Below are positions 8,991 through 23,110 of a stretch of DNA of 38,309 nt, in pieces. Each line of letters starts with the position of its first letter. Positions within the stretch are counted from its first letter, which is position 1. The notes beneath the pieces are model-generated. The model was not told where the DNA came from. It did not search any database and was given only the letters and a program-made list of their open reading frames with translations. The translations under genes and the position numbers were made by a program. This stretch comes from Minisyncoccota bacterium (GTDB taxonomy: Bacteria; Patescibacteriota; Minisyncoccia; Phycocordibacterales; Phycocordibacteraceae): NCBI GenBank assembly GCA_028687085.1, contig JAQUAU010000001.1, forward strand, positions 1 to 38,309, given 5' to 3'.

Positions 8991-9061
8991 TGCCAGATCG
9001 TCTAATGGTAGGACCTCAGACTCTGAATCTGAGTATCTTGGTTCGAATCCAAGTCTGGCAG
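8991..9061 (+). tRNA. tRNA-Gln (anticodon CUG)
   Basis: Acceptor TGCCAGA/TCTGGCA, D arm GTCT-AATGGTA-GGAC, anticodon arm TCAGA-CTCTGAA-TCTGA (anticodon CTG), T arm CTTGG-TTCGAAT-CCAAG. Confidence 0.85.
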
Positions 9062-9249
9062 CAAAAATAAGCGCAGCGTTTTTTGCTGCACAGAAGCAGT
9101 CACGGGGTGACTGCGACTTGGATTCGAAGACCTTGTGAGCATTTTATGGAGCGGAGCGAACAGAAAATCCACAAGGTATACTGAAACTGTAAGTTTCGAA
9201 AAACGTACTCGTGGTCCACGACTGGCAGCAAAAAGAATATACTCATCCA

Positions 9250-10402: not shown

Positions 10403-10645
10403 ATGTATTTCGTTTACATTCTCAAATGCAAAGACGGGTCGTTCTACACCGGTATCACGACCGATGTGGCGCGCCGCTTCGCAGAGCACCGAAGCGGCAC
10501 GGGCGGTCATTACACTAGGGCAAAAGAGGCCGTAGAAATCATCTATACCGAGCCGCATCCGGATAGGTCTTCTGCGTCAAAACGCGAAGCAGAGATAAAG
10601 AGCTGGCCTCGAGAAAAGAAGCTGAGCCTGATCCGACCCTCATAG
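10403..10645 (+). CDS. Small GIY-YIG nuclease-family protein (YhbQ/UPF0213-like)
   Basis: MYFVYILKCKDGSFYTGITTDVARRFAEHRSG...REAEIKSW matches the GIY-YIG/URI layout. Confidence 0.8.
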   Translation: MYFVYILKCKDGSFYTGITTDVARRFAEHRSGTGGHYTRAKEAVEIIYTEPHPDRSSASKREAEIKSWPREKKLSLIRPS

Positions 10646-14343: not shown

Positions 14344-14739
14344 ATGGACTCCTACACCTCATACGCAACACTCATCAAACCGAGCTGGTCACCGCCGGCA
14401 TGGGTCTTTGGCCCGGTGTGGACAGTGCTCTATATCATTATCGCCGCGACCTACGGCACCGTCTTCTATAAAGCGTTTACGAGAGAGCTGCCCTGGGTGG
14501 TCGCGCTCCCGTTTGCGCTCAACCTCGTCTTCAATTTCTCCTACACGTATCTCCAGTTTGGGCTCAAGAATTACACCCTCGCCTCGGTAGATATTCTCCT
14601 CGTTCTCGGCACCCTTATCTGGGCGCTTATCGCCGTCTACCCGTACCTGAAATGGGTCGCACTCGCCAACATCCCGTACCTCCTCTGGGTAAGCTTCGCC
14701 ACGGTACTTCAGCTAACGGTCACGTATTTGAATCGATAG
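14344..14739 (+). CDS. TspO/MBR family protein (short, apparently lacking TM1)
   Basis: LIKPSWSPPAWVFGPVWTVLYIIIA and a Trp-rich C-terminus (YLLWVSFATVLQ). There is an in-frame stop 2 codons upstream of the ATG. Confidence 0.7.
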   Translation: MDSYTSYATLIKPSWSPPAWVFGPVWTVLYIIIAATYGTVFYKAFTRELPWVVALPFALNLVFNFSYTYLQFGLKNYTLASVDILLVLGTLIWALIAVYPYLKWVALANIPYLLWVSFATVLQLTVTYLNR

Positions 14740-14954: not shown

Positions 14955-16160
14955 ATGATTCATAAAATATCGTTCAGCAACTTCTTTTCCTTTATGGACG
15001 AGGTTTCCATCGATTTTGTTGTAGACAATCATGCTCCGGATACGAATGCCTATTTCACAGATAGTTTTGGGAATCGAATAAGTAAAATTATGACCGTTGT
15101 GGGAGGCAATGCTTCGGGGAAAACAAATTTACTCAGGAGTGTAGCCTTCCTAAGATGGTTTATAGCTGACTCTTTTACGGATCTAGAACCAACGCAGAAA
15201 ATAAGCGAGAAAGATATCTACCAACCCTTTTTATTTTGTGAACAGAGTGGGCCTAGTACATTTGAAATTACCTTCGCTATAGAGAAAGAGATTTATAAGT
15301 ACAACCTTTCCCTAAACAACGAAAGGGTTCTTAACGAAGTACTCTCTATCAAAAAAGAGACGAACTACTGGAATAAGATATTTACTAGAAACTATGACGA
15401 TCAAAGAAAGGAGTACAGTGTTAACTTTGCAAAGCTGGATTTGCCGTCCGACTTCGAAAAGCTTGTAAGACCGAATTCCTCTGTACTGTCTTCAGCAAAG
15501 CAAATTAACAATCCACACGCAGTGAAGATTGTAAATTATTTCTCAAGCATTCAATCTAGCTTTGATGAAATGGGGGCACCGAATAAAAATGCATACCAAG
15601 CGCTTTATAAAGCCGCTGAGTTTTATCATAATAAGCCTGAAATAAGGGACAAGGTAGAGAAGATACTTAAGAGTTTCGATCTCGGTATCTCAAAATTCGA
15701 AATCCAGAAGTTTAAAAGAGCCGACAATACTGAAGTTCATCTTCCGTTGTCTTATCACAAGCGAATAGACTCCGAAAAAGAGGCTATGCTTCTAATGAAT
15801 GAAGAGTCTGGCGGGACGCGCAACCTTTTCCTTCTTCTAAAGGATATATTCGCGGCCCTAGAAACCGGCAACATTGTTATTTTCGATGAGCTGGACAATA
15901 ATCTCCATCCGTTAATGGTTCCTGAGATCATAAATCTATTTAGATCGGTTAATCACAATCCGCACAATGCTCAATTGTTCTTTAGTTCACACAATGTACA
16001 GATTCTAAATGAATTAGACAAACAACAGATAGTCCTTGTTGAAAAAGATAAAAATATAAGCGACGCGTGGAAACTTAGTGATATTGAGGGAGTGCGCCCA
16101 GGGGAGAATTATTACACCAAATATCTAGCTGGTGTATATGGAGGAATACCGCGTCTCTAA
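14955..16160 (+). CDS. ABC-type (AAA_15/AAA_21-like) ATPase, AbiLi/AriA-like
   Basis: IHKISFSNFFSF start, Walker A GGNASGKTN, signature-like ESGGTRNLF, Walker B IVIFDELDNNLHP, H-loop FFSSHN. TGATAAAAT lies 6 nt before the ATG. Confidence 0.75.
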   Translation: MIHKISFSNFFSFMDEVSIDFVVDNHAPDTNAYFTDSFGNRISKIMTVVGGNASGKTNLLRSVAFLRWFIADSFTDLEPTQKISEKDIYQPFLFCEQSGPSTFEITFAIEKEIYKYNLSLNNERVLNEVLSIKKETNYWNKIFTRNYDDQRKEYSVNFAKLDLPSDFEKLVRPNSSVLSSAKQINNPHAVKIVNYFSSIQSSFDEMGAPNKNAYQALYKAAEFYHNKPEIRDKVEKILKSFDLGISKFEIQKFKRADNTEVHLPLSYHKRIDSEKEAMLLMNEESGGTRNLFLLLKDIFAALETGNIVIFDELDNNLHPLMVPEIINLFRSVNHNPHNAQLFFSSHNVQILNELDKQQIVLVEKDKNISDAWKLSDIEGVRPGENYYTKYLAGVYGGIPRL

Positions 16161-16174
16161 TAAATGTTCGTTAT

Positions 16175-16681
16175 ATGCGTCAACCTAAGATAACAGTTCT
16201 CGCTTATGGTGAAGGGGATGATGAAAAGATATTTCTTCGACACCTAGAAGCATTATATTGTCGTAGGAAGCTTGTAAGTGTAAGAACAGGCTCAGCCGGT
16301 GGAGGCAGTCCCTCGTCGATACTTATGAGGGCCAAGAGTTTCCGCTGGGGGTATAGGAGAGATTTTGAATTTATCCTGCTAGATACAGATAAGACTTGGC
16401 CTCCTGAAATGATAGATCTTGCAGCAGAAGAGGAAATAAAGCTAATCGGGAGTAGCCCATGTCTAGAAGCGTTTTTCTTGGACATTCTTCAATCTCCACA
16501 TTCTTGCAAAGGCGTTGGATCTAAAAAATGCAAGGAGATATTTGAGACGCACCACTGCAGTGGCCACAACTTCACAGAAGAAGAATGCGCTCGGCTTTTT
16601 CCTAAAGCATTTTTAAATGAAGCTCGAAAACGCAATGAGGACCTTAATTATATAATTACCGCAATGGAGGGCACTTTGTAA
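16175..16681 (+). CDS. Toprim-like RloB/DUF4276-type protein (AbiLii/AriB-like partner)
   Basis: VLAYGEGDDEKIFLRHL (Toprim-type Glu), ILLDTDK (DxD) and SSPCLEAFFLDIL (resembles the RloB SNPCFE motif). The gene starts 14 nt after the ATPase stop. Confidence 0.55.
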   Translation: MRQPKITVLAYGEGDDEKIFLRHLEALYCRRKLVSVRTGSAGGGSPSSILMRAKSFRWGYRRDFEFILLDTDKTWPPEMIDLAAEEEIKLIGSSPCLEAFFLDILQSPHSCKGVGSKKCKEIFETHHCSGHNFTEEECARLFPKAFLNEARKRNEDLNYIITAMEGTL

Positions 16682-16747: not shown

Positions 16748-17143
16748 ATGGCGAGTATTCAAATAAGGAGTAGACTTAATCGGAACAGGCAGAATATGAA
16801 GAAAATAGACGAATTTACAAAGAGAATAGTTGCTTTCAGGAACGCTCGGGACTGGAAGCAGTTTCATAATCCCAAGGACCTCTCGTTGTCCCTCGTGCCC
16901 GAGGCTGCAGAGGTTATGGAGCATTTCCAGTGGAAGAGCAAGGAAGAGATAGAGAAGTACGTTGTCGATGCAAAGGAAGAAATAGGGGAAGAACTCGCCG
17001 ACGTTCTGTACTGGGTTCTCCTGATGGGTCACGACCTAAATATAAATGTACTCACTGCGCTCGACAAAAAGATGAAAAAAAACGAAGCAAAGTACCCGGT
17101 CGAGAAAGCGAAAGGGAAGCATACGAAGTACAACAAGCTTTGA
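16748..17143 (+). CDS. MazG-like nucleotide pyrophosphohydrolase (alternative start at 16796)
   Basis: FRNARDWKQFHNPKDLSLSLVPEAAEVMEHFQW...EELADVLYWVLLMGHDLNI...KMKKNEAKYP matches the MazG/DCTPP1-type all-alpha NTP-PPase pattern. Confidence 0.75.
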   Translation: MASIQIRSRLNRNRQNMKKIDEFTKRIVAFRNARDWKQFHNPKDLSLSLVPEAAEVMEHFQWKSKEEIEKYVVDAKEEIGEELADVLYWVLLMGHDLNINVLTALDKKMKKNEAKYPVEKAKGKHTKYNKL

Positions 17144-17146
17144 TTC

Positions 17147-19168
17147 ATGATCCAGATCGAAACATTTCCGTTTGAGAAAGAAAAATTCGATCAACTGAAG
17201 GGCTATCATTATGGGCTGAATTGGCCGGTCGTTTACATACAAGAAAATGGAAAGGAAATGTACATCGGGCAGACTACCGATGTGTATAGTCGAAGTAAGC
17301 AGCATTACGAAAATCCTGCCAGAGCTCGTCTGACTAAAATTCACATACTCACCGACGAGGAATTCAACTTATCTTCAGCTTTTGATTTCGAGTCACTCTT
17401 GATTCAATACGTCTCAGCAGAGGATGGTTTCAAGTTGCAGAACAGAAATGGCGGCTTAATAAATCACAATTATTACGACAAAGAAAAATATACAGCGAAA
17501 CTCGAGACAGTCTGGCCAAAACTTCAAGAAATTGGTTTAGTTAAACAGGAAATAGCCGACATCAAGAATAGTGAATTTTTTAAATATTCTCCATATAAAG
17601 CCCTAACCGAAGACCAGTTATTGGTAGCTAAGAAGATAGAAAAAAGTATTAGGAAAGGAAATACAGCAGCGCATGTTATTAACGGTGGCCCTGGAACGGG
17701 AAAGTCTATACTTGCTCTCTATCTTCTTAAGCATATGAAAGAGGAAGAGGATACGAAACACCTCAAAATCGCTCTGGTTGTTCCAATGAGTGGATTGAGA
17801 AATACGCTGCAACGAGTATTAAAACGGGTCCCGGGCATGGGGGCCGATTTGGTGATAGGTCCAAGCGATGTTGTTAAAAAAGAGTATGACGTACTTATTG
17901 TAGATGAAACGCACAGATTGCGTCGTCGAGTAAATTTGGCCAACTTTGGGTCCTACGATTCAACCAATAAGAAACTGGGTCTTTCTAAGGACGCAACACA
18001 GCTTGATTGGATCATTGCATCTTCCAAGCAGCAGATATTTTTTTACGACAGCAGACAGACTGTGGTTCCCGGGGATGTTCGACCCGGAGATTTTAGGAAA
18101 CTAGGAGCCGTGCAGTACGAGCTAACAAGCCAAATGCGTATACAGGGCGGTGAGGATTATTTGCAATTCGTTGATGATTTATTAGATCTTAAATTAGAAG
18201 GTAGTTTCCAATCGGCAAAATATGATTTCAAAATGTATGAAGACATTGGCGAAATGGTGCGAGATATTAAAATCAGAGATTCCGAGCACAAACTGGCTAG
18301 AGTTGTTGCAGGATATGCATGGTCTTGGAACACAAAAGGAGGTAAGGAGGGACATGATATCGAGATTGGTGACCTAAAACTCGTATGGAACAGTACCAAT
18401 ATTGATTGGGTAAATTCAAAAAATGCGATAAATGAAGTCGGCTGCATCCATACCGTTCAAGGGTATGACTTAAATTATGCGGGAGTGATTATCGGACCAG
18501 AGCTCTCTTACGATGAAAATTCGGGAACATTAGTGGTTGATGAGAAGAAATATAAAGATATCAATGGCAAACGATCGATTACCGACCCGGATGAGTTAAA
18601 GCGATATGTCATCAATATTTACAAAACATTATTAACGCGAGGTATAAAAGGAACCTACGTGTATGTAGTAGATGAGAAGTTGCGAAAGCATTTTAATGAT
18701 CTAGTTTCGGACACTTCAAAAGATACTGAAATCCTTTATACAGCACCTGTTTTGTCGCCGATTACTATAGACATGATTCGCGTGCCCCTTGTCGGTTCTG
18801 CCCCTTGTGGCAATCCGTTGGTAGGAGAACAAAACATAGAAGAGTATATTTTGGTGGAGAAGTCGAAAATCAAGCCAGGATTTGAATATTTCATACTAAG
18901 GGCTGAAGGCGATTCTATGAATCTTAGAGACATAAATGACGGCGATCTTGTGTTATGTCGTTTGCAAGAAAAGGCCGAAACAGGCGACCGTGTCGTGGCT
19001 CTCCTTGGAGGTGAAAATGTCACTATTAAAGAATATGGCCCACGAGTAGACGGTGTCCGCTTACTGATTCCGAAGAGCACAAATAAAAAGCATATGCCGA
19101 TTACTCCCGACGAGGGCGACAGCGTACAGGGTGTTGTGCAGGAAGTTATTAAATCGGAAAATGAATGA
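17147..19168 (+). CDS. Fusion protein: GIY-YIG nuclease + DUF2075 (Schlafen-helicase-like) P-loop NTPase + LexA/UmuD-type S24 peptidase
   Basis: aa 25-105 form the GIY-YIG domain (VVYIQENGKEMYIGQTTDVYSRSKQH...N). Walker A is GGPGTGKS (aa 180-187) and the DExH-like motif is VLIVDETHRL (aa 249-258). DUF2075-type LTSQMRIQGGEDYLQFVDDLL and IHTVQGYDLNYAGVIIG are present. aa 545-667 match LexA/UmuD: RVPLVGSAPCGNP...AEGDSM...VTIKEY. Confidence 0.75.
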   Translation: MIQIETFPFEKEKFDQLKGYHYGLNWPVVYIQENGKEMYIGQTTDVYSRSKQHYENPARARLTKIHILTDEEFNLSSAFDFESLLIQYVSAEDGFKLQNRNGGLINHNYYDKEKYTAKLETVWPKLQEIGLVKQEIADIKNSEFFKYSPYKALTEDQLLVAKKIEKSIRKGNTAAHVINGGPGTGKSILALYLLKHMKEEEDTKHLKIALVVPMSGLRNTLQRVLKRVPGMGADLVIGPSDVVKKEYDVLIVDETHRLRRRVNLANFGSYDSTNKKLGLSKDATQLDWIIASSKQQIFFYDSRQTVVPGDVRPGDFRKLGAVQYELTSQMRIQGGEDYLQFVDDLLDLKLEGSFQSAKYDFKMYEDIGEMVRDIKIRDSEHKLARVVAGYAWSWNTKGGKEGHDIEIGDLKLVWNSTNIDWVNSKNAINEVGCIHTVQGYDLNYAGVIIGPELSYDENSGTLVVDEKKYKDINGKRSITDPDELKRYVINIYKTLLTRGIKGTYVYVVDEKLRKHFNDLVSDTSKDTEILYTAPVLSPITIDMIRVPLVGSAPCGNPLVGEQNIEEYILVEKSKIKPGFEYFILRAEGDSMNLRDINDGDLVLCRLQEKAETGDRVVALLGGENVTIKEYGPRVDGVRLLIPKSTNKKHMPITPDEGDSVQGVVQEVIKSENE

Positions 19169-19205: not shown

Positions 19206-19580
19206 CTATAACCTTCCTTTTACAGGAAATGTTTTCGGTGTTTCATTATGATTGAGCAGGCTTCTCACGATCTCTTCCGGTTCATGGCCGTTTTTGAGTT
19301 TGTACCATCTGAAGACAGATCGTACTGCGAGGACTAGGGTGATGATTCCCAAAACGATGAAGATGGATCGTATGGTCTCGCCCGGAATGTAGCCGATATC
19401 TCGGAAAGTTTCTGTGAGATATCCGGTGGAGAGCGAAGCAAAGGCGATACCGCCGAATCCGAAGGCTGAGTTCGATGAATTGTAGAATTCCTTTGAGCGA
19501 AACAACCTTAAGACAAGGGAATCTTTGTTGATTATGATAACGTCCCTGTCTCTGTTGTCGTGTTCTTTAAATATTTTCAT
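19206..19580 (-). CDS. Hypothetical 2-TM membrane protein (124 aa)
   Basis: ORF with two hydrophobic segments, divergent from the XRE gene. No family recognised. Confidence 0.45.
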   Translation of the reverse strand: MKIFKEHDNRDRDVIIINKDSLVLRLFRSKEFYNSSNSAFGFGGIAFASLSTGYLTETFRDIGYIPGETIRSIFIVLGIITLVLAVRSVFRWYKLKNGHEPEEIVRSLLNHNETPKTFPVKGRL

Positions 19581-19635
19581 GCGGTGACATCTTAGCGAAG
19601 GGTATTTTAGTTGTCAACTATTCGACCAAGATGGA

Positions 19636-19685
19636 TTGACTTCTTTACATCATTTGTGTATGCTTGCTCATATGAGCATGCATAC
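19636..19685 (+). promoter_or_regulatory. Promoter (TTGACT-N17-TATGCT) overlapped by a 28-bp near-perfect palindrome (candidate XRE operator)
   Basis: TTGACT at 19636..19641 and TATGCT at 19659..19664. The palindrome GTATGCTTGCTCATATGAGCATGCATAC at 19658..19685 has a perfect core TGCTCATATGAGCA and covers the ATG at 19672. Confidence 0.55.
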
Positions 19686-20364
19686 ACAAAAAATAAAGGA
19701 ATTACGGCTCGAAAAAGGATTGAGCCAGGATCGAGTTGCCCAAGCCATTGGCGTCTCGCGCCCCACCTATACCGCTATTGAGGCAGGGAAGCAGAAGCTC
19801 GACCTTGAAGAGGCGAAGAAGCTGGCAGACCTCTTTGGCATCGATGTAGATGCGCTCCTCTCGGGGAACATCCCCAACTTCGAGAAGTATAAGCACATGA
19901 TCCTCGCGTACCTGCGCATGAAGCTTTCTGCTGACTGCAAGGTTCCCAAAACGAAGCTCGCGAAGCTTCTCTACCTCGCCGACTTCGCGTGGTTCTATGA
20001 CCATCTCGAGAGCATGAGCGGTATGCAGTATAGGAAGATTGCTTACGGCCCAGTGCCGGACTTATTCTTCAGGGCTATCGATGAACTCGAAGAGAGCGGC
20101 AAGATTGTGATTGAAAGGAAGAATGACGATGGCAGAGAGATGTTCCTAATATGCGAGGCTGAAAGCAATAAGAATGAGAAGCTCGAAACTATCACTAAGA
20201 ATGAAAAGGGCTTGATGTCTGACATCGCGAAGAAGTGGAAGGATAAGAAGACGAAAGATATCGTTAATTTCACGCATAATCAGTTGCCGTATTTTCTCTG
20301 CAGAGAGGACGAGCTCATTCCCTACGAGCTCATCACGCAGGAGGATCCCGATAAGGTGTATTAA
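19672..20364 (+). CDS. XRE-family HTH + DUF4065 (Panacea) domain antitoxin-like protein
   Basis: HTH region IKELRLEKGLSQDRVAQAIGVSRPTYTAIEAGKQ. DUF4065-like region KTKLAKLLYLADFAWFYDHLESMSGMQYRKIAYGPVP. The start is uncertain (19636 TTG, 19672 or 19678). Confidence 0.7.
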   Translation: MSMHTQKIKELRLEKGLSQDRVAQAIGVSRPTYTAIEAGKQKLDLEEAKKLADLFGIDVDALLSGNIPNFEKYKHMILAYLRMKLSADCKVPKTKLAKLLYLADFAWFYDHLESMSGMQYRKIAYGPVPDLFFRAIDELEESGKIVIERKNDDGREMFLICEAESNKNEKLETITKNEKGLMSDIAKKWKDKKTKDIVNFTHNQLPYFLCREDELIPYELITQEDPDKVY

Positions 20365-20371
20365 AAGAGGT

Positions 20372-20764
20372 ATGGACGTTCTGTACTCTGTACATGTTGA
20401 AGAGTTTGCAGAACGATACTTCATAAAGAAATTCCACAAGAAATATCAAGAGAAATGGGACACTACCTTAATTGCTATCAAGGCCGAGCTTAGCCGCATT
20501 GACAACTTGCTGCTGTCAAGTCGCGCAACTACCATTGCCCAGGGCGATGATGTGAAGATCATAAAGACTGAATTCAGAGTGGTGGGGACGAAGGAGTCTG
20601 CGAAGTCATCGGGTAACAGATGCATTGTGGCGTGGCATCCAAAAGAATTGTCTGTCTCTGTCCTGCTCGTATACAACAAGACAGATTTGAGTGGCAAGAA
20701 CGAGACGGCCGAATGGCAAGACATGATTCGAGAGAACTATCCACAGTATAAGAGCCTGTTTTAA
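20372..20764 (+). CDS. Putative toxin partner, RelE/ParE (Gp49/HigB-like) fold
   Basis: 130 aa, starting 7 nt after the antitoxin stop. KTEFRVVGTKESAKSSGNRCIVAWHPKELSVSVLLVYNKTD resembles the RelE-superfamily core (R...GKSGG.R.I......i.ll.vY.K.d). Confidence 0.45.
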   Translation: MDVLYSVHVEEFAERYFIKKFHKKYQEKWDTTLIAIKAELSRIDNLLLSSRATTIAQGDDVKIIKTEFRVVGTKESAKSSGNRCIVAWHPKELSVSVLLVYNKTDLSGKNETAEWQDMIRENYPQYKSLF

Positions 20765-20881: not shown

Positions 20882-21280
20882 ATGAAAGGATTCGTCACCA
20901 ATATTGAGCAGGCATCGATTGAGAACGACTATTTCAGAAAGGTGCTCTATACCGATGAACACGTCCAGCTCGTCGTGATGAGCTTGAAGCCCAGCGAGGA
21001 CATCGGCGAGGAGGTGCACCAGCTCGACCAATTTATCCGCGTCGAGGCGGGCGAGGGGAGCGCAGTCTTAGACGGCGTCGCGCACCCGATACAAGACGGC
21101 TCGGCGATTGTCATCCCGCAAGGCACGCGGCACAATATCATCAACACCTCGTCGGAGAATCCGATGAAGCTCTACACGCTCTATGCACCGCCGAACCATA
21201 AGGACGGCAAGGTGCACGAGACGAAGGCAGAGGCAGAGGCCGACGAGGCCGAGCACTTCGACGGCACAACGAGCGAATAA
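20882..21280 (+). CDS. Cupin-domain protein
   Basis: GEEVHQLDQFIRVEAGEGSAVLDG...IVIPQGTRHNIINTS matches the cupin_2 pattern. Confidence 0.7.
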   Translation: MKGFVTNIEQASIENDYFRKVLYTDEHVQLVVMSLKPSEDIGEEVHQLDQFIRVEAGEGSAVLDGVAHPIQDGSAIVIPQGTRHNIINTSSENPMKLYTLYAPPNHKDGKVHETKAEAEADEAEHFDGTTSE

Positions 21281-21324
21281 TAAGTCAGGCCCGCCGCCGG
21301 CAATCCACTTAGTTATTCTATTCT

Positions 21325-21342
21325 AGCATTTTGCAAAAAGCT
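21325..21342. promoter_or_regulatory. Copy 2 of the palindrome AGCATTTTGCAAAAAGCT, 20 nt upstream of the ArsR-family gene
   Basis: The 31-nt block 21321..21351 (TTCTAGCATTTTGCAAAAAGCTGAAATGATA) is identical to 21607..21637. Confidence 0.5.
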
Positions 21343-21362
21343 GAAATGATACACTAGGGGGT

Positions 21363-21635
21363 ATGACAACGAACTATCGGAAGATCGAAGGGGTGGTGAA
21401 GGGGTTCGCGAACCATCGGCGGCTCCAGATTATGGAGCTTTTGCAGGAGGAGCCGGAACTCTCGGTAGATGACATCGCCGAGAAGCTTCGCATCGGCTAT
21501 AAGAATACATCGGATCATATCCGCAAGATGGCGATTGCCGGCTTAGTGCTGAAGCGCAATGACGGTCCCTACGTTCGGCACAAGCTCGCCCCGCGTGGCG
21601 AGAACATTCTAGCATTTTGCAAAAAGCTGAAATGA
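21363..21635 (+). CDS. ArsR/SmtB-family winged-HTH transcriptional regulator
   Basis: FANHRRLQIMELLQEEPELSVDDIAEKLRIGYKNTSDHIRKMAIAGLVLKR matches the family pattern. Confidence 0.75.
   Translation: MTTNYRKIEGVVKGFANHRRLQIMELLQEEPELSVDDIAEKLRIGYKNTSDHIRKMAIAGLVLKRNDGPYVRHKLAPRGENILAFCKKLK
21611..21628. promoter_or_regulatory. Copy 3 of the palindrome, inside the last codons of the ArsR-family gene and 69 nt upstream of the 21698 gene
   Basis: Same 31-nt block as copy 2. It is read here in a different frame from copy 1, so conservation is at the DNA level. Confidence 0.5.
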
Positions 21636-22153: not shown

Positions 22154-23110
22154 ATGAAGGCTCGGATGGTTATATATCAAGCGAAGAACGGCGCAATTGA
22201 ACTGCGGGGTGATGCTTCGCGCGATACTCTGTGGGCTACACAGGCGCAGATTGCCGAAGTCTTTGGTGTTGAGCGGTCGGTCGTTACTAAACACATCAGG
22301 AATATCCTCAAAGATAAGGAACTAGAGACGCATGCAGTATGTGCAAAATTTGCACATACTGCCGCGGACGGGAAGGTCTACCAAGTCGAGCACTATAATC
22401 TCGATGCCATCATCTCGGTCGGCTACCGAGTCAATTCAAAGACCGCGACGCAGTTCAGACAATGGGCGACGAAGACGCTTCGCGAACATATAACGAAAGG
22501 ATATACGCTTAACCGAAAGCGGATTGGCGCGAACTACGTCGCTTTTATGAAAGCTGTGGGAGATATTCAAGCGCTCTTGCCGGAGCATGTCGCCCTCGAC
22601 CCAAAGAACATTCTGGAACTCGTGAAGGAGTTTTCAACGGTCTGGGTGTCGCTTGATGCGTACGACAAGGAGAAACTTACCGTAGTCGGCACAACAAAGC
22701 GCGCAATTAAGCTCACTGGATTGGAACTCGAAGAGACTATCGCGGATCTTCGTGCAGAGCTCATGAGAAAAGCGGAGGCTACTGAACTGTTCGCTCAGGA
22801 GAGGACAAAGGGAAGCGTCGAAGGAATCGTGGGGAACGTCATGCAGTCGTTTGGCGGCAGGCCCGTGTATCCGACTATTGAAGAAAAAGCGGCTCACCTG
22901 CTCTACTTCATGGTTAAAAATCACCCCTTTACCGACGGTAATAAGCGTTCGGGAGCGTTCTCGTTCATCTGGTTCTTGCGAAAGGCGAAAGTGAAAACGG
23001 CTCGGAACATCAATCCGGGCGCGCTTACGGCGCTCACTCTCTTGATCGCTGAAAGTAATCCAAAACGAAAGGATCAAATGGTCGCGCTTATCACTCAAAT
23101 CTTAAAATGA
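22154..23110 (+). CDS. RhuM-family N-terminal domain fused to a Fic/Doc domain (Doc-type motif)
   Basis: The RhuM-like region is VERSVVTKHIRNI...YNLDAIISVGYRVNSKTATQFRQWATKTL. The C-terminal motif HPFTDGNKR fits the Doc-type HxFx(D/N)(A/G)NKR. Confidence 0.7.
   Translation: MKARMVIYQAKNGAIELRGDASRDTLWATQAQIAEVFGVERSVVTKHIRNILKDKELETHAVCAKFAHTAADGKVYQVEHYNLDAIISVGYRVNSKTATQFRQWATKTLREHITKGYTLNRKRIGANYVAFMKAVGDIQALLPEHVALDPKNILELVKEFSTVWVSLDAYDKEKLTVVGTTKRAIKLTGLELEETIADLRAELMRKAEATELFAQERTKGSVEGIVGNVMQSFGGRPVYPTIEEKAAHLLYFMVKNHPFTDGNKRSGAFSFIWFLRKAKVKTARNINPGALTALTLLIAESNPKRKDQMVALITQILK

Follow-up and report, generated by a model that had tools for sequence, protein, structure and literature searches.

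A MazG-like gene paired with a GIY-YIG–helicase–S24 fusion gene in Patescibacteria: a candidate two-gene defense cassette

The gene pair and its annotation

The window analyzed here is the whole of a 38,309-nucleotide (nt) stretch of DNA from a Minisyncoccota bacterium (assembly GCA_028687085.1, contig JAQUAU010000001.1). At positions 16,748 to 19,168 it carries two genes on the same strand, separated by 3 nt. The first open reading frame (ORF1) codes for a MazG-like nucleoside triphosphate (NTP) pyrophosphohydrolase, and the second (ORF2) for a fusion protein of 673 amino acids (aa) in which a nuclease, a superfamily 1 (SF1) helicase and a self-cleaving S24 domain are joined in one chain. We found that the actual unit is a widespread cassette made of a MazG-like gene and a nuclease–DUF2075 helicase gene, and that the S24-bearing form present in the window is one variant of it. 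The features of the pair are as follows.

16748–17143, forward strand: MazG-like ORF1 in its longest form, 131 aa
16796–17143, forward strand: MazG-like gene from its likely start, 115 aa, predicted DCTPP1-type all-alpha NTP pyrophosphohydrolase
17147–19168, forward strand: large fusion gene ORF2, 673 aa, with GIY-YIG domain, DUF2075/SLFN-type SF1 helicase, linker and S24 autoprotease
17219–17461, forward strand: GIY-YIG nuclease domain, aa 25–105, with Y30, Y39-I-G41, R49, H53, E82 and N99
17564–18706, forward strand: SF1 helicase/NTPase domain, aa ~140–520, with K186, D253-E254, Q329/R331, Q438-G439 and R498
18779–19147, forward strand: S24 (LexA/UmuD-type) domain, aa 545–667, with Ser590 at nt 18914–18916 and Lys628 at nt 19028–19030
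18806–18811, forward strand: predicted self-cleavage site Cys554-Gly555, from alignment to LexA structures

The original prediction, made from the sequence alone, had the coordinates of the two ORFs right (16748–17143 and 17147–19168, plus strand, 3-nt gap), and the motifs it had named were found in their places: GGPGTGKS at residue 180, VDETHR at 252, TSQMR at 327 and IHTVQGYD at 434, as well as S590 and K628. The three-domain architecture it had proposed for the 673-aa protein was borne out by Pfam, by family profiles and by structure matches. Among the Pfam families that it expected, PF12643, PF03819, PF09848 and PF00717 were matched, while PF01541 was marginal on the window protein taken alone.

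For the MazG-like gene, the start at ATG 16796 is favored over the one at 16748. It gives a protein of 115 aa, which is the length of most homologs, and the alignments to homologs begin at residues 16–23. Therefore, the comparison of sequences makes ATG 16796 the most likely gene start.

Domains of the large protein

The helicase domain was matched by PF09848 (SLFN-g3_helicase, formerly DUF2075) over aa 176–509 with an E-value of 2.4e-66 and a score of 224.9 bits. The helicase motifs were invariant in homologs, namely the Walker A lysine K186, the Walker B pair D253-E254, Q329/R331, Q438-G439 and R498, and the ATPase motifs of the DUF2075 SF1 helicases of Nhi and Nhi-like proteins are intact here. 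An AlphaFold2 (AF2) model of the 673-aa protein had a predicted local distance difference test score (pLDDT) of 77.4. The best match to the fold of this model in the PDB, as found by Foldseek, was human SLFN11, followed by UPF1, RecD, RecD2 and Dna2. The relationship to the helicase domain of group III Schlafens, which had been proposed in the original prediction, was thus confirmed both by the Pfam family and by the top fold match.

On the window protein the GIY-YIG model PF01541 scored 20.1 bits at full length, below the cut-off of 22.6, and 22.7 bits when the N-terminus was taken in isolation. The same model matched all 29 of 29 diverse N-termini of the family, with the Bacteroidetes homologs scoring 29–32 bits. 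A profile built from the N-termini of the family had T4 endonuclease II (EndoII) as its best match in the PDB (5.4e-4) and also found the N-terminal domain of UvrC, I-TevI and Slx1. We observed Y39, G41, R49, H53, E82 and N99 in every representative covering those columns, and Y30 in all but one; the motifs GIY...YIG that define the superfamily are present together with the catalytic Arg, Glu and Asn. Because of the family-wide matches and the conserved residues, the assignment of the N-terminus to GIY-YIG nucleases can be called secure at the level of sequence, despite the marginal score of the window protein. Judged by residues, then, both the GIY-YIG endonuclease domain and the SF1 ATPase/helicase domain of the large protein are intact.

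The C-terminal domain of ORF2 was matched by PF00717 (Peptidase_S24) over aa 547–664 (4.4e-18, 65.5 bits), by LexA in the PDB (7.7e-13) and by the lexA model TIGR00498 (9.7e-19). It aligns with the structures of LexA and UmuD, and the C-terminus of the AF2 model superposes on the C-terminal domain (CTD) of LexA at ~3 Å with TMt of 0.74–0.79; the cleavage loop, aa 551–562, has pLDDT below 50 in this model. The cleavage-site region of the window protein, VPLVGSAPCGNPLVGEQNIEEY, is LexA-like when aligned to its counterpart in E. coli LexA, and the string VPLVGSAPCGNPL surrounds Cys554-Gly555, the equivalent of the scissile bond. UmuD is cleaved at a Cys-Gly bond. In 120 close homologs, position 554 was Cys in 117 and Ala in 3, while Gly555, Ser590 and Lys628 were kept in all 120. 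Taken over all catalytic residues together with this site, the counts in these homologs were 117–120. Both marks of the S24 family, the Ser-Lys dyad and an Ala/Cys-Gly scissile bond upstream of the core, are therefore found, and the domain has an intact dyad and a predicted canonical cleavage region of the LexA/UmuD type.

A LexA-type transcriptional repressor was considered for the large protein and rejected, since no helix-turn-helix (HTH) DNA-binding domain was detected by Pfam in the 673-aa protein. The lexA model was matched in its C-terminal part only: TIGR00498 was covered at model positions 79–200, and the score of 67.8 bits compares with a cut-off of 110.95.

The S24 domain was carried by about 20 of the 149 listed representative clusters (50% identity), and it was present on members of both nuclease classes described below. 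The original prediction of a complete S24 domain was therefore correct for the window protein, but the domain is not part of the conserved core of the family. Since most relatives lack it, S24 appears from these alignments as an optional regulatory add-on.

The MazG-like partner

The product of ORF1 matched PF12643 (MazG-like) with an E-value of 4.1e-18 and 65.8 bits against a cut-off of 27, and also PF03819. Its relatives in the PDB were the pyrophosphatase 4qgp (9.5e-19) and mouse and human dCTP pyrophosphatase 1 (DCTPP1; 1.6e-16), with 63.7 bits against the mouse protein. Across 87 non-redundant partner MazG-like proteins the metal ligands E36, E39, E42, E66 and D69 were kept, as were W20, H24, W46, Y100 and K92; all of these are shared with DCTPP1. 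The motifs ExxE...ExxD and the four-helix core of the MazG-like/DCTPP1-type family are present. Judged by its residues, the small partner is a catalytically intact DCTPP1-like deoxynucleoside triphosphate (dNTP) pyrophosphohydrolase. It has the acidic metal ligands and W20, H24, W46 and Y100 in common with DCTPP1/RS21-C6 (PF12643), and here it is a stand-alone protein of 115 aa encoded beside a nuclease-helicase gene.

The closest characterized relatives of the MazG-like protein, the DCTPP1 enzymes, sanitize the pools of modified dCTPs rather than deplete nucleotides in bulk, and DCTPP1 prefers 5-modified dCTPs. The nucleotide depletion that had been suggested for the MazG-like enzyme is thus one possible role for it.

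The same preference, together with the conservation of W20, H24, W46 and Y100, would fit a sub-variant of defense that resembles type IV restriction: the nuclease-helicase would target DNA with modified cytosines, while the DCTPP1-like partner would destroy the matching modified dCTPs and so prevent autoimmunity caused by the salvage of degraded phage DNA. DUF2075 NTPases have been noted beside modification-dependent endonucleases (PMC6765204), C5 DNA methylases are among the neighbors of the cassette, and genes for EVE proteins lie near two three-domain loci that have no MazG-like gene. On the other hand, Pfam recognized no reader domain for modified bases (SRA, EVE or PUA) in the large protein, the association with EVE amounts to two loci, and the substrate preference of the MazG-like enzyme is predicted from residues only. 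We consider this version of the defense reading unlikely.

Seeming fusions of MazG into larger proteins were met in two loci, as ORFs of 498 aa (L080) and 659 aa (L104). They were rejected: the N-terminal extensions had no Pfam domain, and the long ORFs are probably an artifact of an ORF caller that takes the earliest start codon.

Distribution and linkage of the two genes

Full-length homologs of about 670 aa formed more than 120 clusters (at 90% identity) from metagenome-assembled genomes (MAGs) of Patescibacteria, also known as Candidate Phyla Radiation (CPR), with 59–85% identity to the window protein. The wider family is much larger. Among representatives at 50% identity we counted 472 clusters at E ≤ 1e-30 and 1951 at E ≤ 1e-10, and most members had a length of 520–600 aa with the GIY-YIG and helicase domains only. 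A second class had, in place of GIY-YIG, an N-terminus of 260 aa with no match in Pfam and with an invariant E...D...ExK pattern ('RIDFIITG...IIELKQW'). Because of this pattern, the N-terminus of the second class is assigned, on sequence, to PD-(D/E)xK nucleases, the same type as in Nhi.

In species-representative genomes a MazG-like gene was immediately upstream on the same strand at 14 of 15 loci; the fifteenth locus was cut by the contig end. Another 94 loci from metagenomes and viral contigs were collected via a diverse alignment and scanned with custom hidden Markov models. For a locus to be testable, we required 350 nt or more of sequence on each side and an ORF no shorter than 450 aa. 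Of the 87 loci that qualified, 72 (83%) had a MazG-like gene as a direct neighbor on the same strand. For the GIY-YIG class the count was 50 of 61 (44 upstream and 6 downstream), and for the PD-(D/E)xK class it was 22 of 26 (15 upstream and 7 downstream). The gaps between paired genes ranged from about -50 to +36 nt, with stop and start codons overlapping in many loci. The paired loci came from Patescibacteria, Bacteroidetes, Bacilli, Bacillus megaplasmids, gut metagenomes and a cyanophage record.

Because genomes contain few MazG-type genes, adjacency in 72 of 87 loci is not due to chance. Furthermore, the order of the two genes varies, which points to a link in function and not to synteny by descent. 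The operon-like pairing that had been read from the window, and the conserved linkage to MazG on which the original prediction had staked itself, both hold for the family. No conserved third gene was found: the 125 neighbor ORFs of 14 S24-type loci fell into 109 Pfam families with at most three recurrences, and the 147 neighbor ORFs of 54 wider loci fell into 126 families.

Matches to the family were present in 110 plasmid records, 70 of them in Bacillus. Megaplasmids of B. mycoides, B. thuringiensis and B. cereus carry the pair without S24, annotated as 'nucleotide pyrophosphohydrolase' and 'DUF2075 domain-containing protein'; on pBM482 of B. mycoides the two proteins are WP_016096863.1 and WP_215561373.1. 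The record of the Microcystis phage Mwe-JY31 holds one pair, and 14 related loci were found in IMG/VR viral contigs.

Such plasmid and viral records could also point to a weapon of mobile elements, which would attack the DNA of a host or competitor and reshape the dNTP pool, by analogy with T4 EndoII and the gp56 dCTPase, or to a toxin–antidote cassette that stabilizes islands and plasmids. T4 endonuclease II as the best PDB match of the N-terminal profile (5.4e-4), the tight coupling of the genes with its many stop/start overlaps, and the frequent toxin-antitoxin (TA) neighbors could be taken in the same sense. Still, most loci are chromosomal, and no phage structural or replication genes, integrase or flanking repeats were detected in the window. 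The MazG-like gene is sometimes absent, which is unexpected for an essential antidote, and the T4 analogy consists of a weak profile match and background biology. A role of this kind seems to us very unlikely.

Exchange of nuclease-helicase cores

The modular structure of the cassette is best seen in a locus from another Paceibacterota MAG (L014, 5299–7608). Its MazG-like protein is 88% identical to that of the window, and its linker and S24 domain are 87% and 92% identical to those of the window protein. The helicase core, in contrast, has 31% identity, and the nuclease is non-homologous, being of the PD-(D/E)xK type instead of GIY-YIG. These identities indicate that nuclease-helicase cores are exchanged between conserved ends, and we interpret the locus, on the aligned sequences, as a recent recombination that swapped the effector core between the conserved MazG and S24 ends.

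Taxon labels did not predict identity to the window protein, which was 82% for a protein on a contig labeled as Saccharibacteria and 59% for a protein on one labeled as Nomurabacteria. The GC content of the pair was below that of the distal flanks in 17 of the 19 loci examined.

Comparison with known systems

Nhi of S. epidermidis (SERP2475; Bari et al. 2022) and Nhi-like of B. cereus FSL H8-0482 (Millman et al. 2022) are validated single-gene anti-phage systems made of a PD-(D/E)xK nuclease and DUF2075. In Nhi, Nhi-like and AbiO, as in the window protein, a nuclease at the N-terminus is followed in the same chain by a DUF2075 (PF09848) SF1 helicase; these three are often located in defense islands. 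The second MazG-linked class resembles Nhi and Nhi-like further by its PD-(D/E)xK N-terminus, whereas the nuclease of the window protein is of the GIY-YIG and not of the PD-(D/E)xK type. Another difference is that Nhi and Nhi-like act as single genes, while in the family described here a MazG-like partner is conserved and a subset of the large proteins ends in an S24 domain.

Membership in Nhi, AbiO or the PADLOC families PDC-S41 and PDC-S14 was considered and rejected, with weak partial matches only and no full-length homology to the validated Nhi and Nhi-like proteins. PDC-S41 matched weakly the C-terminal half of the helicase domain and, in the PD-(D/E)xK class, extended across the N-terminus; PDC-S14 matched weakly the GIY-YIG region. 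The scores of 18–66 bits against models of 300–657 positions characterize these two families as distant relatives and not as families to which the protein belongs.

Group III Schlafens (SLFN11, SLFN14, SLFN5, SLFN13) have a helicase of the same Pfam family, and in both cases an SF1 ATPase is coupled to a nuclease. SLFN11 responds to single-stranded DNA (ssDNA) and replication stress, conceptually like an S24 domain that senses activated RecA (RecA*). Only the helicase is shared, however: Pfam found no Schlafen (AlbA_2-type) RNase core in the window protein, which has a GIY-YIG DNase domain in its place. What defines the bacterial Schlafens described recently is their RNase domain, not the helicase.

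With LexA, UmuD and lambda CI, the window protein shares the Ser-Lys dyad, the LexA-like cleavage region, the UmuD-type Cys-Gly site and the LexA CTD fold. In those proteins the S24 domain is joined to an HTH domain or a polymerase accessory tail, whereas here it forms the C-terminal end of a nuclease-helicase.

As for MazG, the dNTP-depleting PUA-Calcineurin-CE-HAD defense has rare MazG-like replacements (bioRxiv 10.64898/2026.01.15.699771), and DefensePredictor predicts MazG systems in defense (PMC13092281). MazG has other partners there, PUA and HAD; neither a DUF2075 helicase nor an S24 domain takes part, and the role of MazG is predicted, not validated. Fusions of DUF2075 to GIY-YIG or PD-(D/E)xK domains were described in a 2019 paper, according to which DUF2075 may also neighbor modification-dependent endonucleases (PMC6765204). 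Our literature search produced no description of a MazG-DUF2075 pairing or of a fusion of S24 to an effector, with subscription journals thinly covered, so that absence is not proof. Neither was described in the Nucleic Acids Research 2026 domain-centric screen or in the papers on bacterial Schlafens, DefensePredictor and PUA-Cal-HAD.

The claim that no described system has this architecture therefore needs to be narrowed. The combination of a nuclease with DUF2075 is that of Nhi and Nhi-like; the elements that are new in comparison are a nuclease of the GIY-YIG class, a MazG partner that is conserved in the family, and the fusion to S24. By these comparisons, the cassette is probably an undescribed variant of the Nhi-type nuclease-helicases that falls outside the validated families.

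The island and its cargo

In the window, an AT-rich stretch of 6 kb surrounds the pair; its GC content is 0.39–0.47 compared to ~0.55–0.60 in the flanks, and the AT-rich island noted in the original prediction is thus real. The features of the island and its surroundings and of the related locus L147 are listed below.

14344–14739: TspO/MBR gene, island anchor
14955–16681: AbiLi-like AAA_21 ATPase (AbiLi 2.9e-77, PADLOC) and a 168-aa RloB/AbiLii-like protein, upstream of the pair
19636–20764: HTH_3 and SocA_Panacea antitoxin-type gene, then a 130-aa ORF, downstream of the pair
20882–21635: Cupin_2 and ArsR-type HTH, island anchor
22154–23110: fusion of a RhuM-family N-terminus with Fic/DOC (PADLOC single-gene candidate PDC-S23, 6.9e-111), another candidate defense gene, 3 kb downstream
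L147, 5785–6183: TspO anchor
L147, 11694–12442: Cupin_2 and ArsR-type HTH anchor

Between the shared anchors, the cargo of L147 consists of Fic, the pair, DUF218 and ExoX, and that of the window of the AbiL-like pair, the MazG/helicase pair and the Panacea module. On the evidence of these two sequences, the site between TspO and Cupin appears to be a hotspot of integration or recombination whose cargo is exchanged. No att-like direct repeats were found to flank the island, no integrase, phage structural or replication genes were detected beside the pair in the window, and no tRNA adjoins the island, the nearest being tRNA-Gln at 8991–9062.

The upstream genes had been called AbiL/PARIS-like. 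They are better read as AbiL-like, with the strong AbiLi match and weak AbiLii/RloB matches: the 168-aa protein was below threshold for PF13707 (25.3 bits against 31.5) and matched AbiLii with 4.8e-05. The AbiL-like pair was missing from the homologous loci checked and is therefore independent cargo of the same island. The 130-aa ORF that follows the Panacea gene had no match in Pfam, NCBIfam, PHROGs or PADLOC and is presumably the toxin of the Panacea module. Both genes were kept beside the MazG/helicase pair in locus L007, with 71% and 65% identity, and in L152 a Panacea gene with a 126-aa gene is also located 3' of the pair. Near the CPR copies, genes of defense, TA and mobile elements are common. 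Other neighbors in L152 were Fic, NYN, and a methyltransferase with a HinfI-type endonuclease. In the 14-locus census, the neighbors included PemK, Peptidase_M78, Mrr, DUF4411, SoFic, AbiEii and a type IV endonuclease.

Possible function of the cassette

We hold with about even confidence that the cassette is a self-contained, horizontally mobile unit of the Nhi type directed at phage or other invading DNA. What suggests this role is the core architecture of the validated Nhi and Nhi-like proteins, the linkage of the two genes, the mobility and core swapping, the defense and TA neighbors, and the independent predictions of MazG-type enzymes as defense components. The helicase would load onto the DNA of an invader or onto replication intermediates, which the GIY-YIG domain would then cut, as Nhi does. 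The MazG-like enzyme would hydrolyze dCTP-type, possibly base-modified, dNTPs; this may starve phage replication or block the re-incorporation into host DNA of modified nucleotides released from degraded phage DNA. In the S24-bearing variant, the protein would be dimerized by its S24 domain, which would also serve as a switch. Where phage replication intermediates or damaged DNA give rise to RecA-ssDNA filaments, these would promote cleavage at Cys554-Gly555 and so separate a 554-aa nuclease-helicase from the dimerization domain. The cleavage might either activate the enzyme, as in UmuD, or shut it off by a LexA-like separation that would serve as a brake on autoimmunity. Since relatives without S24 exist, the core should work without the switch.

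The full scheme is only tentative. In it, a nuclease-helicase fused to a LexA/UmuD-type autoprotease would be gated by proteolysis in response to RecA-ssDNA filaments, a universal mark of phage replication or broken DNA; the DCTPP1-like enzyme would handle the (modified) dNTP pool, and MazG and S24 would be portable ends of the cassette. The logic of such a RecA-gated switch would parallel human SLFN11, in which the sensing of ssDNA and replication stress is coupled to a Schlafen-type helicase.

Several observations weigh against a role in defense. The PADLOC models of Nhi and AbiO gave partial matches of 46.4 and 46.7 bits, confined to aa 142–351, and BLASTP against Nhi-like (the first 399 residues of the 611-aa protein, the stretch printed in the supplement) aligned 110 aa around the P-loop at 29% identity, with E = 0.002. 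The MazG-like protein had zero PADLOC matches. Out of the 87 testable loci, 15 had no adjacent same-strand MazG-like gene, with none in the locus sequence in 11 and a nearby, non-adjacent one in 4; the three-domain loci L149 and L150, found in a separate look-up, also lack it, so that the partner is not obligatory. An alternative partner common to the MazG-less loci was not found. The neighbors of the 54 wider-family loci were mostly housekeeping or miscellaneous genes, and methylases, integrases and HNH genes were met only now and then. Housekeeping genes also surround the CPR loci L153 and L154. For an immune gene that evolves fast, one would expect somewhat less than the 60–85% identity seen between CPR lineages, though horizontal transfer could explain this level. 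Finally, DCTPP1-type enzymes and S24/UmuD-type switches are classic parts of DNA-damage responses and housekeeping. The typical defense-island context that had been assumed for the pair therefore holds for the window and several CPR loci and is not evident in the 54 wider loci, L153 and L154; the association of the family with defense islands is partial.

A serious alternative is a module for DNA-damage response and nucleotide-pool hygiene. RecA* would activate the GIY-YIG/helicase protein, in the manner of UmuD, on damaged DNA or stalled forks, and the DCTPP1-like enzyme would clear damaged or non-canonical dNTPs. The UmuD-type Cys-Gly site with the LexA-like cleavage region, the place of the MazG-like protein in the 'house-cleaning' DCTPP1 family, and the matches of the GIY-YIG profile to the UvrC N-terminus and Slx1 are consistent with such a module, as is the response to replication stress of SLFN11, the top fold match. 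So are the loci found beside dnaG-rpoD and a UvrD-PDDEXK gene, beside Smr and a separate S24 protein, beside ExoX, or among purely housekeeping neighbors. The cassette is, however, accessory and mobile, with a patchy distribution, GC content low compared to the flanks, and copies on plasmids and viral contigs; its core is swapped between conserved ends, and the cargo of the hotspot varies. In addition, the validated relatives of the architecture are anti-phage, and most family members have no S24 domain, so that a RecA-linked role is not the core function. We find this explanation less likely than defense, though it is the strongest of the alternatives. If it were true, the cassette would be a mobile, RecA-gated unit for DNA processing and pool sanitizing, a more modest finding.

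If the cassette does act against invading DNA, the Nhi-type family would be extended to a cross-phylum two-gene system with a nucleotide-pool enzyme as an obligate-like partner, and DNA degradation would be linked to dNTP control. It would also be the first case found in which a self-cleaving S24 domain is wired directly to an effector of immunity instead of a repressor, and RecA filaments might then signal infection at the level of proteins. The system was found in uncultured CPR bacteria, in which few defenses have been recognized, and the Bacillus megaplasmids offer culturable entry points. Its SLFN11-like and DCTPP1-like parts would add to the immune and replication-stress modules shared by bacteria and animals.

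Other features of the loci

The remaining features in the window and in the MazG-less loci are the following.

19206–19580, reverse strand: 124-aa ORF with hydrophobic stretches (by eye), between the helicase gene and the Panacea module
10403–10645: stand-alone 80-aa GIY-YIG protein ('MYFVYILKCKDGSFYTGITTDVARRFAEHRSG...'), motifs by eye, outside the island and unrelated to the module
L149, 10019–10480: EVE (PUA-like, modified-base-binding) gene
L150, 13831–14298: EVE gene

The EVE gene of L149 is directly downstream of the helicase gene on the opposite strand. The association with EVE is seen in two loci, too few to build on, and it could be a coincidence. In L150, a gene for a glyoxalase/bleomycin-resistance-like protein is located 2 nt upstream of the helicase gene; DefensePredictor flags this domain as a predicted defense domain (PMC13092281).

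Scans for promoters and terminators gave counts at the level of shuffled sequences and were uninformative. Just upstream of the putative 124-aa ORF there is a sigma-70-like site, TTGACA-17-TAAGAT (10/12), at 19617–19589; the ORF itself is missing at the equivalent position in L007. A near-perfect palindrome of 38 bp at 19653–19690 overlaps the listed TTG start of the Panacea gene. It is probably an operator, which would place the true start of the gene at the ATG inside it (MSMHTQK...).

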